Below, one piece after another: positions 58,841 to 63,055 of a stretch of DNA of 64,000 nt. Position numbers and translations under genes: made by a program. The stretch comes from an uncultured bacterium (lineage in GTDB: Bacteria; Omnitrophota; Omnitrophia; Omnitrophales; Abzuiibacteriaceae). Numbering within the stretch: the first letter of the stretch is position 1; every line of letters starts with the position of its first letter. The notes under the pieces were generated by a model. The model was not told the origin of the DNA, did no database searches, and saw only the letters and a program-made list of their open reading frames with translations. The stretch is from the NCBI GenBank assembly GCA_964387845.1, contig CAYLXA010000012.1, forward strand, positions 1 through 64,000, in the 5' to 3' direction.

Positions 58841-59785
58841 ATGCGCGCCCGCCGCCGGGGCAGGGGCCCCATCGACCGCGAAGTTGTCATTTTTGCAGCC
58901 TTTATTCTGTTTACCGGATTTTTTATCGGATTTTTGTTGGGTCGGCAATCCGTTTCACAAAAACCGGCGCCCGAAATCATAACAATTGAAAAGCATGTGC
59001 CATTACCGGTTCCGCAAGTTCCCAAAGAACAGCCGAAAGAAATTTATCCCGAAGTAAAACCCGAGGCACCGAAGCAGGAGCGCAGCGTTTTGTCTTACAT
59101 TAATCCGTTTACCAAAAAGAAACCCAAAGCGCCGCGGATTGCGATCGTGATTGATGATGTCGGAAACGGAAGTAAATTAGAACAGCTGGTTTGGGATTTG
59201 CCAGAGCGGGTTACGCTTGCGATTTTGCCGCGGCTGTCTCATTCGCAATATTTTGCAGACGAAGGCAGAAAGCGCGGTTTTGAGATTATTCTGCACCAGC
59301 CGATGGAACCGCTAAATTCCAAAGAAGCGGATGATGTCGGAATAATCCGGGCCAACATGAAAGAAAATGAAATCCGGAAAATTTTGGATGACAATCTGAA
59401 AACAACGCCCGGCGTCATCGGCGTTAACAATCACCGCGGTTCAAAGGTAACGCAAGACCGCCGTGTAATGAAAATCATTTTGGAAGACCTGAGATCTCGC
59501 GGACTTTTTTTTCTGGACAGCATGACAAGCGCTAATTCGGTCGGCTGGCGCGAAGCGGATAAAATTGATTTGCCGCACTTGAAGCGCGATGTGTTCTTGG
59601 ACAACGAACTCAATCCGGAATATATCCGCCATCAATTTGAAGACCTGCTTGCAATCGCCAAAAAACATGGTCACGCGGTCGGAATTGGGCATTACAAAAC
59701 AAATACGTTAACTGTTTTGAAGCATGAAATTGAACAAGCCCGTGAAGCCGGCTTTCAAATTGTGCCGCTAAAGGATCTGCTTTGA
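58841..59785 (+). CDS. Divergent polysaccharide deacetylase family protein (YibQ-like), membrane-anchored
   Basis: An N-terminal TM helix is present. IAIVIDDVG...GVNNHRGS... matches the YibQ family pattern. Confidence 0.55.
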   Translation: MRARRRGRGPIDREVVIFAAFILFTGFFIGFLLGRQSVSQKPAPEIITIEKHVPLPVPQVPKEQPKEIYPEVKPEAPKQERSVLSYINPFTKKKPKAPRIAIVIDDVGNGSKLEQLVWDLPERVTLAILPRLSHSQYFADEGRKRGFEIILHQPMEPLNSKEADDVGIIRANMKENEIRKILDDNLKTTPGVIGVNNHRGSKVTQDRRVMKIILEDLRSRGLFFLDSMTSANSVGWREADKIDLPHLKRDVFLDNELNPEYIRHQFEDLLAIAKKHGHAVGIGHYKTNTLTVLKHEIEQAREAGFQIVPLKDLL

Positions 59786-60807
59786 TGATTACTTTGGGAA
59801 TTGAAACATCCTGCGATGAAACGAGTTGTGCGATCTTAGAAAATGCGGACAAACTGCGCGCGAATATTATTTCATCGAGTCTTGCCAAACATAAACCCTA
59901 CGGCGGTGTCGTGCCCGAAATTGCGTCGCGGCATTCTTTGGAAGCAATCGATGTTGTTTATGAAACTGCGCTCAGGGAAGCGCGCGTAAAACCAAGCGAC
60001 ATTGATTTGGTTGCGGTCACCCAAGGCCCCGGCCTTATCGGCTCACTTTTGGTCGGCGTATCGTTCGCTAAAGCGTTGTCATTTGCGCTGGATGTTCCTT
60101 TAGTCGGTGTTCATCATCTGGAAGCGCATCTGGCTTCCAATTTTGTGCTCCAGAAAAAGCCGAAAGGCCCCTACATCGGTTTAATTGTTTCAGGCGGCCA
60201 CACGAGCATTGTTCATGTCAAAGGCCAGAAAATTGAAGAGTTGGGTTCGACTGTTGATGACGCAATCGGGGAAGCGTACGATAAGACGGCGAAAATTTTA
60301 GGACTCGGTTTTCCGGGCGGGCCCGTCATGGATAAACTTGCGCAGCAAGGAAATCCAAAAGTGCACTCATTTACGAAGCCAAAGATTGACGGCCGCTATA
60401 ATTTTTCATTCAGCGGTATTAAAACTGCCGTTTTACATTTGGTTTGCGGCCAGAAAATGGAAAAGTCGGCGAAATGGAAAGGCCAAAAGTTAAATGACCT
60501 CGCCGCCAGTTTCCAATCGACCGTTGTGCGTTGGTTGGTTGAGAAAACCATGCTGGCCTGCGAGGAGAAGAAAGTAAAAACCATTGTTGTGGGCGGCGGC
60601 GTGAGCGCTAATTCGAAATTACGCTTAGAACTTCAAAATGAATGCAAGCTTCGCGGATATAAACTTTTTATTCCGCCCCTGAGCCTGACGACGGACAATG
60701 CGCTCATGATCGCGCGCCTTGGCTATGAGAAATTCAAACAGGGAAGGCGATCCGGATTTGATTTGACGGCCGATCCAAATCTTAATATGGAGCTTGTGAG
60801 CGCATGA
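59782..60807 (+). CDS. tsaD: tRNA N6-adenosine threonylcarbamoyltransferase
   Basis: A Kae1/Gcp fold with HHLEAH. Confidence 0.93.
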   Translation: MMITLGIETSCDETSCAILENADKLRANIISSSLAKHKPYGGVVPEIASRHSLEAIDVVYETALREARVKPSDIDLVAVTQGPGLIGSLLVGVSFAKALSFALDVPLVGVHHLEAHLASNFVLQKKPKGPYIGLIVSGGHTSIVHVKGQKIEELGSTVDDAIGEAYDKTAKILGLGFPGGPVMDKLAQQGNPKVHSFTKPKIDGRYNFSFSGIKTAVLHLVCGQKMEKSAKWKGQKLNDLAASFQSTVVRWLVEKTMLACEEKKVKTIVVGGGVSANSKLRLELQNECKLRGYKLFIPPLSLTTDNALMIARLGYEKFKQGRRSGFDLTADPNLNMELVSA

Positions 60808-61565
60808 TGACGCAGGAGGCGATTCAGGAAATTTTAAGACAAACCGGATCGCAGAAATTATCTCCCGAAAAAGCTTTTTCCAAATTAAAAAACCTATCCT
60901 ATGAATCGCTCAAATTTGCCAAAGTTGACCATCATCGTCTTATCCGAAAAGGTTTACCGGAAGTAATATTTGCTCCCGGCAAAACTCTTTTGCAATTAAA
61001 GAAGATTATCACAGCTATTTTGAAATCCAAGCAGCCGCTTTTGGTCACGCGTCTCGATGAGAAAACTTTTTCCGGACTCAAGAAAGCGTTTCCGAAGCTT
61101 CAATATTCGAAACATGGGCGAGTCGCTTATTTTGCTCCCGGCAAAAACGGCAAGTACCATAAAGCATCTGTCGCAATTGTGACAGGCGGTACAAGCGATC
61201 TTCCGGTTGCAGAGGAAGCAGCCATTACGCTTGAAGTAATGGGTATTCCGGTCTCTCGAGTTTTTGATTGCGGTGTCGCGGGGCTTCATCGATTACTTGA
61301 TCGCGTTCAGGAAATCCAGAAAGCGAATCTTGTGATTTGCGTGGCAGGGATGGAAGGGGCTTTGCCGAGTGTTTTAGCAGGTCTTATCGATAAGCCCGTG
61401 ATCGCGGTTCCGACCAGCGTTGGTTATGGCGCCAATTTTGAAGGGCTTTCGGCGCTTCTTACGATGATGAATTCCTGTGCGCAAGGCATCAGCGTTGTCA
61501 ATATCGACAACGGTTTCGGCGCCGCCTGCTTCGCCCTCCAAATCCTCAAAAGTATTCAGAGCTGA
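60804..61565 (+). CDS. larB: LarB-like (PurE-family) nickel-pincer cofactor biosynthesis protein
   Basis: The C-terminal PurE-like block is VAIVTGGTSDLPV...VAGMEGALPSVLAG...PVIAVPTSVGYG. Confidence 0.6.
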   Translation: MMTQEAIQEILRQTGSQKLSPEKAFSKLKNLSYESLKFAKVDHHRLIRKGLPEVIFAPGKTLLQLKKIITAILKSKQPLLVTRLDEKTFSGLKKAFPKLQYSKHGRVAYFAPGKNGKYHKASVAIVTGGTSDLPVAEEAAITLEVMGIPVSRVFDCGVAGLHRLLDRVQEIQKANLVICVAGMEGALPSVLAGLIDKPVIAVPTSVGYGANFEGLSALLTMMNSCAQGISVVNIDNGFGAACFALQILKSIQS

Positions 61566-61905
61566 GATATTTCTCTTCCGCTTTCCTCCGCGCGATGATT
61601 TTTAGCCTAACCGGCTAGACAAAAATCATCGTGCTCAGCCTATTCTGAAAAATTGAGCCATTCAATTTTTCAGCATAATGGCGCTCCAGAGAAATATCTC
61701 AGCTCCTCATGACCTATACGCAAAGGAGCTCAGAGAATGTTGCGAAGGCGGCTCGCGCAGCTCGTTGAAGCTTGGTCCCCCGCCGCTTTATTTTGCAAGC
61801 GAAGTAGCGGGGGTTCAACGAGCGAGCGCGCAGGCAGGCGCAAGCCGCGGGAGCGTGCGAACTGCCGGCGCCGGAGTAACATTCTCTGAGCTCTTGGCCT
61901 CTGCT
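61566..61905. repeat. Highly structured intergenic element: nested inverted repeats plus a roughly 170-bp GC-rich palindrome
   Basis: The outer IR is GAGATATTTCTCT/AGAGAAATATCTC. The inner IRs are CGATGATTTTT/AAAAATCATCG and CTGAAAAATTGA/TCAATTTTTCAG. The long arms are GGAGCTCAGAGAATGTT/AACATTCTCTGAGCTC. Mirror-image ORFs were predicted on both strands. Confidence 0.6.
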
Positions 61906-61916
61906 AAAACACTCGA

Positions 61917-61945
61917 TTGACAGGGAGAGGAGGGCAAGATAGAAT
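61917..61945 (+). promoter_or_regulatory. Consensus sigma70 promoter for hisG (TTGACA -N17- TAGAAT)
   Basis: Both hexamers are perfect or near-perfect, 28 nt upstream of the ATG. Confidence 0.65.
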
Positions 61946-61972
61946 ACGCAACTCATTTAAGGAATTAAAGAT

Positions 61973-62842
61973 ATGAAACTTAAGCTTGCATTGCCAAAGG
62001 GAAGCCTGGAAGAAGCGACTTACGATTTGTTCCGTAAGGCGGGCTTTAATATTGTGCCTACCTCGCGCTCTCTTTATCCCAGTGTGGATGATGAGGAGTT
62101 GGAAGTGGTGCTTTACCGTCCGCAGGAGATGTCGCGCTATATTGAAGACGGCGTCATTGATTGCGGCATTACGGGCCTCGATTGGGTTGCTGAAAATGGA
62201 TCCGACGTCCTGGAAGTTGCCGAGCTTTCCTATTCCAAACAAACCACGCGCCCGGTCCGCTGGGTTCTCGCGGTTCACGAAGATTCTAAATTTAAATCCA
62301 TCCAAGATTTGAAAGGCAAGAAAATCGCGACCGAGCTTATTAATGTCACTAAAAACTACCTGAAGAAACACAAAGTGAACGCCGAAGTGGAATTTTCGTG
62401 GGGTGCCACGGAAGGCAAGCCGCCGGTTTTGGCGGATGCGATTGTCGAAGCTACCGAAACGGGAAGCAGTCTTAAAGCCAACCGCTTGAAAATTATTGAT
62501 ACCGTTCTGGAATCGACCACGCGCTTTGTCGTCAACAAAAAGAGCAATCAGGATCCCTGGAAACGCCGCAAGATCGACAACCTGGTTTTACTTTTAAAAG
62601 GTGCTATGGCCGCGCGGAGCAAAGTCGGTTTGAAAATGAATGTTGCCAAGAAAGATTTGGAGAAAGTGATTAAGATCTTGCCGGCTTTAAAAAAGCCGAC
62701 GATTTCAAATTTGTCCAGTGATGGTTGGTACGATGTTGAAACCATTATTGACGAAAAGATTGTCCGAGAGATTGTGCCGGAACTGAAAAAAGCCGGCGCC
62801 TCGGGAATTGTTGAGTATCCATTAAATAAAGTAATTTTCTAA
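61973..62842 (+). CDS. hisG: ATP phosphoribosyltransferase, long form
   Basis: The long form is 289 aa and includes a C-terminal regulatory domain. Confidence 0.9.
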   Translation: MKLKLALPKGSLEEATYDLFRKAGFNIVPTSRSLYPSVDDEELEVVLYRPQEMSRYIEDGVIDCGITGLDWVAENGSDVLEVAELSYSKQTTRPVRWVLAVHEDSKFKSIQDLKGKKIATELINVTKNYLKKHKVNAEVEFSWGATEGKPPVLADAIVEATETGSSLKANRLKIIDTVLESTTRFVVNKKSNQDPWKRRKIDNLVLLLKGAMAARSKVGLKMNVAKKDLEKVIKILPALKKPTISNLSSDGWYDVETIIDEKIVREIVPELKKAGASGIVEYPLNKVIF

Positions 62843-62864: not shown

Positions 62865-62963
62865 GTGCCTTGCGGAAAAAAGCGTAAAAAAGCGAAGATG
62901 AACAAGCATAAGTGGAAGAAGAAACGCCGCAAACATCGCCATATGAAGAAGGCGTGGTCGTGA
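62865..62963 (+). CDS. Small Lys/Arg-rich protein, candidate bS22-like (AURKAIP1/DUF1713-type) ribosomal micro-protein
   Basis: A GGGAGAGG SD is 6 nt before GTG. Translation gives VPCGKKRKKAKMNKHKWKKKRRKHRHMKKAWS. An alternative ATG is at 62898. It is missing from the ORF track. Confidence 0.45.
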   Translation: MPCGKKRKKAKMNKHKWKKKRRKHRHMKKAWS

Positions 62964-62971
62964 AGAAAAAG

Positions 62972-63055
62972 AGGTAAGTGCTAAGTGGTAAGTGGTAAGT
63001 AATGGAAGTGTAATAGAATTTTTCTGTTACTTATCACTTATCACTGATCACTTAA
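62972..63055 (+). terminator. Hairpin with G·U wobble pairs on + strand RNA (AAGTGGTAAGTGGTAAGTAA / TTACTTATCACTTATCACT)
   Basis: The inverted repeat follows the micro-protein gene directly. It belongs to the same motif family as 250–330. Confidence 0.5.

Follow-up and report, generated by a model that had tools for sequence, protein, structure and literature searches.

Two tandem palindromic modules with strong predicted folding between larB and hisG in an uncultured member of the Omnitrophota

The spacer between larB and hisG in a 64,000-nucleotide stretch of contig CAYLXA010000012.1 (the window, from an uncultured bacterium of the Omnitrophota) carries a structured block of about 335 bp at 61559-61893, which consists of two adjacent palindromic modules, A and then B. 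The gene order at the locus is tsaD (59782-60807), larB (60804-61565), a spacer of 407 bp, hisG (61973-62842), an open reading frame (ORF) for a basic peptide of 32 aa and ispE. The best-named homologues of HisG and LarB all come from Candidatus Omnitrophica/Omnitrophota, and the overall GC content of the window is 47%. The block occupies the gap between the larB stop codon and the -35 box of hisG, with its left arm beginning 7 nt inside larB. The features of the locus are as follows.

60804..61565, + strand: larB, ORF with the Pfam domain AIRC and homologues named LarB; AIRC-family nickel-pincer cofactor gene
61559..61705, no strand assigned: module A, 147 bp, about 43% GC; closing stem, 3x3 internal loop, 2-bp helix and two inner hairpins
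61590..61634, no strand assigned: inner hairpin 1 of module A, loop TAACC; from inverted-repeat search and fold
61638..61682, no strand assigned: inner hairpin 2 of module A, AT-rich, loop GCCAT; repeat of 16 nt with 94% identity, and fold
61706..61725, no strand assigned: linker between A and B, 20 nt
61726..61893, no strand assigned: module B, 168 bp, about 65% GC (genome 47%); 18-bp closing stem, 3x3 internal loop, 4-bp helix, a long inner hairpin and a side hairpin
61901..61915, no strand assigned: 15-nt stretch directly 5' of the -35 box, perfect complement of larB codons 61366-61380 (conserved PSVLAG motif)
61917..61945, + strand: putative hisG promoter, TTGACA-N17-TAGAAT; 11/12 consensus positions, -10 box 5/6
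61973..62842, + strand: hisG, ORF with the Pfam domains HisG and HisG_C; long-form ATP phosphoribosyltransferase

Module A is closed by a perfect repeat (18/18) in which 61559-61576 faces 61688-61705 (GAGCTGAGATATTTCTCT with AGAGAAATATCTCAGCTC), and the final two larB codons together with the stop codon TGA (61563-61565) lie inside its left arm. Module B is bounded by an inverted repeat of 25 nt with 84% identity, of which 16 nt are perfect (61726-61750 with 61869-61893). Its closing stem pairs 61726-61743 with 61876-61893, the outer 16 pairs being perfect Watson-Crick pairs, and the module encloses further repeats at 61748-61758/61838-61848, 61760-61769/61814-61823 and 61772-61788/61802-61818. 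In the predicted fold, the interior of B holds an imperfect long hairpin at 61754-61830 and, next to it, a side hairpin at 61833-61866. Both modules are predicted to have the same base architecture, made up of 18 pairs, a 3x3 internal loop, a helix of 2-4 bp and a junction with two hairpins, and both modules end in the same 9-bp termini (GAGCTSAGA...TCTSAGCTC). An alternative pairing across the linker joins the right arm of A to the left arm of B (61697-61707 with 61724-61734). 6S RNA was considered for the rod-like module B and rejected, as there is no match to the 6S covariance model and no open central bubble on the 5' side.

The initial annotation of this DNA had described nested inverted repeats at 61566-61972, one of them with arms 170 bp apart, and mirror ORFs on both strands. 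A repeat search bears out the nesting and places the block at 61559-61893 instead; the distance of 170 bp has to be given up, as module B itself is a palindrome of 168 bp whose arms lie 118-136 nt apart. The mirror ORFs are indeed present, each strand carrying one of 80 aa and one of 50 aa. Pfam gave no match to them, and a query with six-frame peptides against 5.8 billion proteins returned no homologue; in the related contig L088, the 80-aa frame on the + strand is broken by an early stop and 7/9 of the differences are replacements. Therefore, the mirror ORFs are not regarded as coding.

Folding stability was expressed as z-scores against dinucleotide shuffles (100-200 per run), and no shuffle in any run folded as stably as the native sequence. 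Taken as RNA, the region 61550-61975 reaches -194.2 kcal/mol on the + strand (z -10.8) and -180.2 kcal/mol on the - strand (z -8.1). Module A by itself folds at -70.5 kcal/mol (z -11.1), with an equal value on the opposite strand (-69.8), and module B at -101.4 kcal/mol (z -7.5), while both modules together as single-stranded DNA (ssDNA) give a z-score of -13.7. When the 64 kb were scanned in tiles of 400 nt with correction for GC content, 61501-61900 was the top outlier (residual z -5.7), the next independent region being a tRNA cluster at -3.5. This is the valid scan, since tiles of 160 nt cut the long stems and therefore miss the element. G-U pairs are scarce on both strands, with 2 versus 0 in module A and 1 versus 2 in module B, and these counts are uninformative as to the strand on which selection might act.

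The sequence of the element is identical in two independent Logan assemblies (L001 and L002), and two further samples, SRR22077680 (L088) and SRR29850202 (L089), contain variant copies of portions of it; it is therefore not an assembly artefact. Breaks within the element are seen in three short-read Logan contigs from three samples: L001 stops at 61734, the first position of L088 is equivalent to 61819, and L089 stops shortly after the apex of hairpin 1 of module A. Differences between strains may underlie these breaks, as may interruptions of the assembly graph that were induced by the hairpins.

The adjacency of larB and hisG was found only in the lineage of the window and in the related contigs L003-L005. 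The latter (96% aa identity in HisG, 78% in LarB and about 77% at the nucleotide level) have a spacer of 78 bp versus 407 bp in the window, and their homology with the window resumes at CGATTGACA, which is the -35 box. In L006 (HisG 98% aa), module B is missing beside the promoter. By contrast with these sister lineages, which are devoid of the element, L089 (LarB 89% aa) shares the LarB tail of the window, after which come the initial 56 nt of module A, and the sequence of L088 (HisG 99% aa) begins midway through module B, the right half of which is present with 7 substitutions. The element has persisted vertically in at least three strains. In more distant relatives (L013 and L035), 1.5-1.7 kb lie between larB and hisG, and a scan of a genome collection for the hisG locus gave a best match of 81% identity.

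The hisG gene itself (61973-62842) is a recombination mosaic, its first half being closest to L088 (33 differences versus 57 for L006) and its last 40% closest to L006 (17 versus 59). As the 5' half of hisG groups the window with L088 and not with L006, the carriers form a clade for this segment, with the non-carriers as outgroups. The comparison of these loci favours a single gain by insertion, although a loss would also be possible.

At the left border, the C-terminal tail of LarB (LQILKSIQS) resembles the tails of other LarB proteins, with that of L004 being the odd one; the tail is therefore taken to be native, so that the coding sequence was not replaced by the insert. For this reason the idea was rejected that GGCCTCTGCTAAA, the sequence 3' of module B, is a relic of the ancestral 3' end of larB and that the insert provided a new LarB tail. 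When 60804-62842 of the window is aligned with L004 (3161-4870), both genes are about 77% identical at the nucleotide level, yet HisG is 96% and LarB 78% identical at the amino acid level, and the two LarB sequences are unrelated over their final 9 residues.

Both parts of the element that could be sampled in other strains are better conserved than the four-fold sites of the neighbouring genes (p ~1e-5 each), for which gene-wide identity is 64% in hisG versus L088 and 50% in larB versus L089. This conservation is uneven. In module A, the closing arm and the junction differ from L089 at 2/31 positions, as compared with 16/50 of the adjacent larB third positions (p=0.012), and hairpin 1 differs at 8/31 positions, which is about the neutral rate. 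In module B, only 2/55 positions of the interior differ from L088 versus 5/20 in the closing arm of the same module (p=0.013), and the spacer directly downstream of B is scrambled with indels between the two sequences.

Some of the substitutions bear on pairing. The apical pair of hairpin 1 of A has changed from C:G to G:C in L089, which is compensatory, and in L088 a G to T change in the side hairpin of B turns an A-G mismatch into an A-U pair; the set comprises two partial homologues only, with this one double change and this one pair-improving change. The right closing arm of B differs between the strains at 25% of its positions (the 5/20 versus L088), yet its outer 16 pairs are all Watson-Crick in the window. 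This suggests that the two arms of B co-evolve, either by selection or by conversion within the palindrome. Judged by these comparisons, the element appears to be at least partly constrained.

Downstream of the element, TTGACA-N17-TAGAAT at 61917-61945 is the sole good promoter-like site on the + strand of the region. It had been called perfect in the initial annotation; the site is there, with 11 of the 12 consensus positions and five of six in the -10 box. Conservation in L088, L006 and L004 covers both promoter boxes (-35 and -10) and the 5' untranslated region of 28 nt (UTR; CGCAACTCATTTARGGAATTAAAGAT), whereas the spacer of the promoter varies, a pattern which reads as the phylogenetic footprint of a real hisG promoter. 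Module B ends 24 nt before the -35 box, and because the element lies upstream of this conserved promoter, it is not the hisG leader, as had been stated before.

A sigma-70-like promoter was not found inside the element, nor did a consensus scan of 61559-61972 on both strands return a terminator-like site or any stem followed by a T-run. The earlier suggestion of a strong bidirectional terminator finds no support in this; a canonical bidirectional terminator does occur elsewhere in the genome, at 1303-1388. There is also no terminator that would separate the element from larB. With neither a promoter nor a terminator between them, the element should be transcribed as part of the larB 3' UTR.

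Between module B and the promoter lies the 15-nt complement of larB (61901-61915). Its duplex with 61366-61380, including an extension, amounts to -27.6 kcal/mol, and the chance expectation for such a match is about 5e-4 per kb. L089 keeps 15/15 positions including 5 synonymous sites, L088 keeps 11/15 on the partner side and L004 has neither. A long-range helix between the two segments that would close the whole region was rejected, as it is not part of the minimum free energy structure (pair probability 0.02) and is not conserved in L004.

Searches for a family or for further copies gave the following picture. In the whole window, Rfam 15 had no match to the element at the gathering score and only tRNAs elsewhere, the best hits in the region at E<=10 scoring at most 15 bits with E of at least 0.4, and ARAGORN found no tRNA or tmRNA in the region. 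No second copy was seen in the 64-kb window by self-BLAST, in the 4.8 kb beyond it on L002 or among 87 related loci (blastn and nhmmer), and a regular expression for the shared termini was also without result over about 607 kb. Plasmid and phage searches in distant mode returned no match, and pattern scans of viral contigs gave only one chance 18-mer. A 21-mer that is conserved between the window and L088 had 7 matches in JGI metagenomes, all of them chance matches of 21-29 nt in GC-rich contigs, and the joined six-frame peptides of the element had no match at E<=10 among 5.8 billion proteins. Literature searches returned nothing relevant.

The initial annotation had offered a miniature inverted-repeat transposable element (MITE), a cis-regulatory RNA, a small structured non-coding RNA (ncRNA) and a terminator or insulator as candidates, and had pointed to the spacer of relatives without an insertion, which is indeed short (78 bp in L003-L005). 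This list is reasonable but does not discriminate. A MITE-like insertion is in keeping with the palindromic shape of a short non-coding unit bounded by terminal inverted repeats (18 bp in A and 16 bp in B, both perfect) and with the presence/absence polymorphism at orthologous sites (the 78-bp versus 407-bp spacer, and L006 without module B), but a second copy is missing from the sequence searched and there is no target-site duplication. The flanks are ATTCA/CTCAT for A and CAAAG/TTGGC for B; the sole string they have in common is the palindromic AGCT in the arms, which is inseparable from an extension of the terminal repeats and hence uninformative. A structured ncRNA or cis-regulatory RNA finds no support in Rfam, where no family matches at the gathering score or at E<=10, or in a promoter of its own, but may still apply, as parts of the element are conserved above nearby synonymous sites. 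The element does not have the properties of an intrinsic terminator, of a hisG leader or attenuator, or of an Rfam family.

Other Omnitrophota, too, repeatedly have long spacers with strong folding in front of hisG. In one other clade an M-hairpin cassette lies between tsaD and the hisG promoter (L024 2429-2994, L025 2417-2950 and L027 940-2890). Each locus has two copies of the M hairpin in inverted orientation, 'M+' and its reverse complement 'M-', along with another hairpin termed 'mod2'; in L027 a Band_7 gene is located between two mod2 copies, and in the sister genomes L021 and L026 the cassette is absent and the spacer measures 50 nt. The six M hairpins are unbranched and have the internal-loop motif CTCARACAG...AACTCG in common. 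Their stems of about 20 bp are wholly different in sequence yet always paired, with double changes in 24/29 pairs, and the family has no match in Rfam.

Like the element of the window, the M-hairpin cassette lies between the stop codon of the co-directional upstream gene (there tsaD) and the hisG promoter, is hyper-structured (z -7.5) and is absent in sister genomes. Unlike the branched modules of the window, it has a conserved internal-loop motif and freely covarying stems. The covariance model R1, built from the six M hairpins, recovered only these six known copies with cmsearch and nothing in the window at E<=1, and there is no sequence similarity between the two; by these comparisons the M-hairpin cassette is not homologous to the element. 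A kinship with the hairpin of L024, based on the same initial GAGCTCAGA, was dismissed as coincidence, as this stem is not conserved within L024's own family. The boundary upstream of hisG is repeatedly filled by hairpin cassettes, and this gap could be merely permissive, or the cassettes could be targeted to it or useful there.

The explanation which we put forward tentatively, and which could well be wrong, is that of a lineage-specific palindromic insertion that has been kept as a folded larB 3' UTR and acts as a barrier or insulator. In this model, two tandem, non-coding palindromic modules would have been inserted into the sole permissive gap, which runs from the stop codon of larB to the -35 box of hisG. 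The tsaD-larB message would include the element as its 3' UTR, where it would fold into two very stable three-way-junction stem-loops. These could form a barrier at the 3' end by which the end of the larB mRNA would be protected or processed, and read-through or antisense interference at the hisG promoter would be hindered, with no leader-type regulation of hisG. The element is an orphan, although palindromic insertions of this kind, which lie between genes and give rise to a folded UTR, are already known.

Several points weigh against this explanation. The structure and the position of the element, its absence from sister lineages, its vertical persistence in at least three strains and its uneven conservation are observed, whereas we only infer that it arose by insertion, is co-transcribed with larB and acts as a barrier or insulator. 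A U-tract after a stem is absent everywhere in the element, so that classical termination is not predicted. The sister lineages live without the element, which makes it dispensable. The rarity of G-U pairs and the strand-symmetric fold of A leave no pointer to the RNA of the + strand over the DNA as the level at which selection took place. The comparative sample is small, with one full copy and two partial copies. Finally, hisG too is highly similar in the window and L088 over its initial 174 nt, with 8/58 third positions differing versus 2/55 positions in the interior of B (p=0.09); this local similarity weakens the argument from conservation and fits a recombination mosaic.

A serious competitor, if an unlikely one, is neutral selfish DNA, in which two MITE/ERIC-like palindromes of one family (termini GAGCTSAGA) were inserted side by side and are now decaying in place. 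It would explain the palindromic shape with its terminal inverted repeats of 16-18 perfect bp, the termini and the architecture common to A and B, the presence or absence among relatives, the strand-symmetric and nearly all Watson-Crick pairing and the foreign-looking GC content of module B (65% versus 47% in the genome). However, no second copy was seen in the window, the L002 flank, about 600 kb of related loci, plasmids, phages, the JGI 21-mer scan or the query of 5.8 billion proteins; that the element is spanned by both a Logan contig of 10.7 kb (L002) and the contig of the window also argues against near-identical repeats in this genome. Neither module is flanked by direct repeats other than the uninformative palindromic AGCT, and the contrast between the interior of B (2/55) and its arm (5/20) is the opposite of conserved terminal inverted repeats around a variable core and is not predicted by uniform neutral decay. 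That same contrast, with an interior almost invariant over 55 nt while the closing arm changes, would suit one or two stand-alone or processed ncRNAs of a new lineage-restricted class, for instance with RNase III cutting at the 18-bp stems to free domains of about 105 and about 130 nt. The high GC content and extreme stability of the fold in a mid-GC genome, the compensatory and pair-improving substitutions and a twin layout with long perfect basal helices, which by analogy resemble processing stems, would agree with this. We nevertheless consider ncRNAs rather improbable, as there is no Rfam match even at E<=10, no promoter-like or terminator-like site of their own on either strand and no excess of G-U pairs to mark a transcribed strand, and as the element is missing from sister lineages and has nothing similar in any other data searched.

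More doubtful still is the idea that the element is the scar of a lost gene cassette, in which a gene between larB and hisG was bracketed by hairpins and a deletion left A beside B. It draws on L027, where the Band_7 gene is bracketed by repeated hairpins in the same gap, on L024 and L025, which have these same hairpins without the gene, on the 1.5-1.7 kb between larB and hisG in L013 and L035 and on the common termini of A and B, as would be expected of bracketing repeats. Between A and B, however, there is a linker of 20 nt without any coding remnant, the element has neither sequence nor covariance-model similarity to the L024 family, and the idea is one of pure analogy. A cis-regulator of hisG (a long leader, a riboswitch or a T-box on read-through transcripts from larB) is highly improbable: the element does lie upstream of a gene for histidine biosynthesis, and long structured spacers recur upstream of hisG in several Omnitrophota loci, but downstream of it come a sigma-70 promoter and a short 5' UTR, both conserved, the closest relatives express hisG without it, no T-box or riboswitch model matches and a terminator/antiterminator pair with a U-tract is lacking. 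An origin by chance or as an artefact of assembly, to which the breaks of L001, L088 and L089 inside the element might point, is effectively refuted by the shuffles, none of 100-200 being as stable, and by the identical sequence in independent assemblies with variants in other samples. Together with the insertion kept as a folded 3' UTR, these explanations take up most of the probability, and a small share is left for unlisted ones.

Some known systems have features in common with the element. Correia/NEMIS elements of Neisseria and similar MITEs are intergenic units of 100-170 bp bounded by inverted repeats, which are co-transcribed with a neighbouring gene, form hairpins cut by RNase III and vary between strains. 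The element likewise is a short, non-coding, intergenic unit bounded by inverted repeats that is present or absent between related strains. Correia elements, however, come in hundreds of copies with a TA target duplication and conserved terminal repeats of 26 bp, whereas the element was found at one locus only, has no duplication, and has terminal arms that diverge faster than the core. ERIC/IRU and REP/BIME/REPIN sequences, which are imperfectly palindromic, lie in transcribed DNA between genes, frequently at the 3' ends of these; they form mosaics of units and can stabilise the upstream mRNA. The element resembles them in having several palindromic units in intergenic DNA 3' of a gene. Yet these families are multi-copy with a consensus, REP having a GTAG head and the RAYT transposase, while at the window element neither a consensus nor copies nor RAYT was seen, and its modules are branched and far larger than REP units.

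Like intrinsic terminators, the element places a GC-rich stem right after a stop codon between co-directional genes; in contrast to them, it has no U-tract and is branched and, at 335 nt, far larger, and the terminator at 1303-1388 of the same genome is quite different. RNase III retroregulatory and processing stems are known from lambda sib and from the flanking stems of rRNA. The long, near-perfect basal helices of the element (18 bp and a further helix) downstream of a coding region, together with its structured interior, may be likened to them, but there is no sequence relationship with lambda sib or rRNA stems and the likeness is one of analogy only.

On the other side of hisG, a basic ORF of 32 aa rich in Lys and Arg (MPCGKKRKKAKMNKHKWKKKRRKHRHMKKAWS) follows directly at 62865-62963 on the + strand; it has no Pfam match and no gene call in the Logan contig, and we take it to resemble the small ribosomal protein bS22. 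Between this ORF and ispE, a tandem-heptamer hairpin is found at 62969-63054, in which (AAGTGGT)x4.6 faces (ACTTATC)x3.7. Hairpins of short tandem units also occur near hisG in other Omnitrophota, namely in L066 (2643-2776, (GGGTATC)n with arms of 59 nt), L041 (3885-4269) and L054 (6631-6722). Further downstream, on the far side of spoVG, the mobile-element genes differ by strain: AbiEii/AbiEi and a weak Replic_Relax match in the strain of the window (L002 3400-7300, past the end of the window) and a large serine recombinase in L003 (6559-8361). The region downstream of spoVG, which has the look of an integration hotspot, lies at a distance of about 2.5 kb from the element.

A broader claim, to which we give little credence, is that the twin modules are a new lineage-restricted structured element of which the fold rather than the sequence is selected, and that they are one case of unrelated hairpin cassettes (the window family, the M-hairpin and the heptamer-repeat hairpins) repeatedly filling the gap from stop codon to promoter upstream of hisG. 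If this recurrent pattern is true, it would imply either structure-specific insertion, for example through recognition of ssDNA hairpins as in attC or REPIN/RAYT systems, or an insulator function that is under selection and for which interchangeable hairpins can be used. If the element is a mere palindromic insertion, it would be a small addition to the intergenic repeats of bacteria, in a phylum in which none have been described. If the fold is under selection, it would represent a new cis-acting RNA device that separates transcription units in compact genomes, or a new mobile element defined by its structure, in the ultra-small, uncultured Omnitrophota. Since another clade has unrelated hairpin cassettes at this boundary as well, the question of selection can be tested with existing metagenomes and metatranscriptomes.

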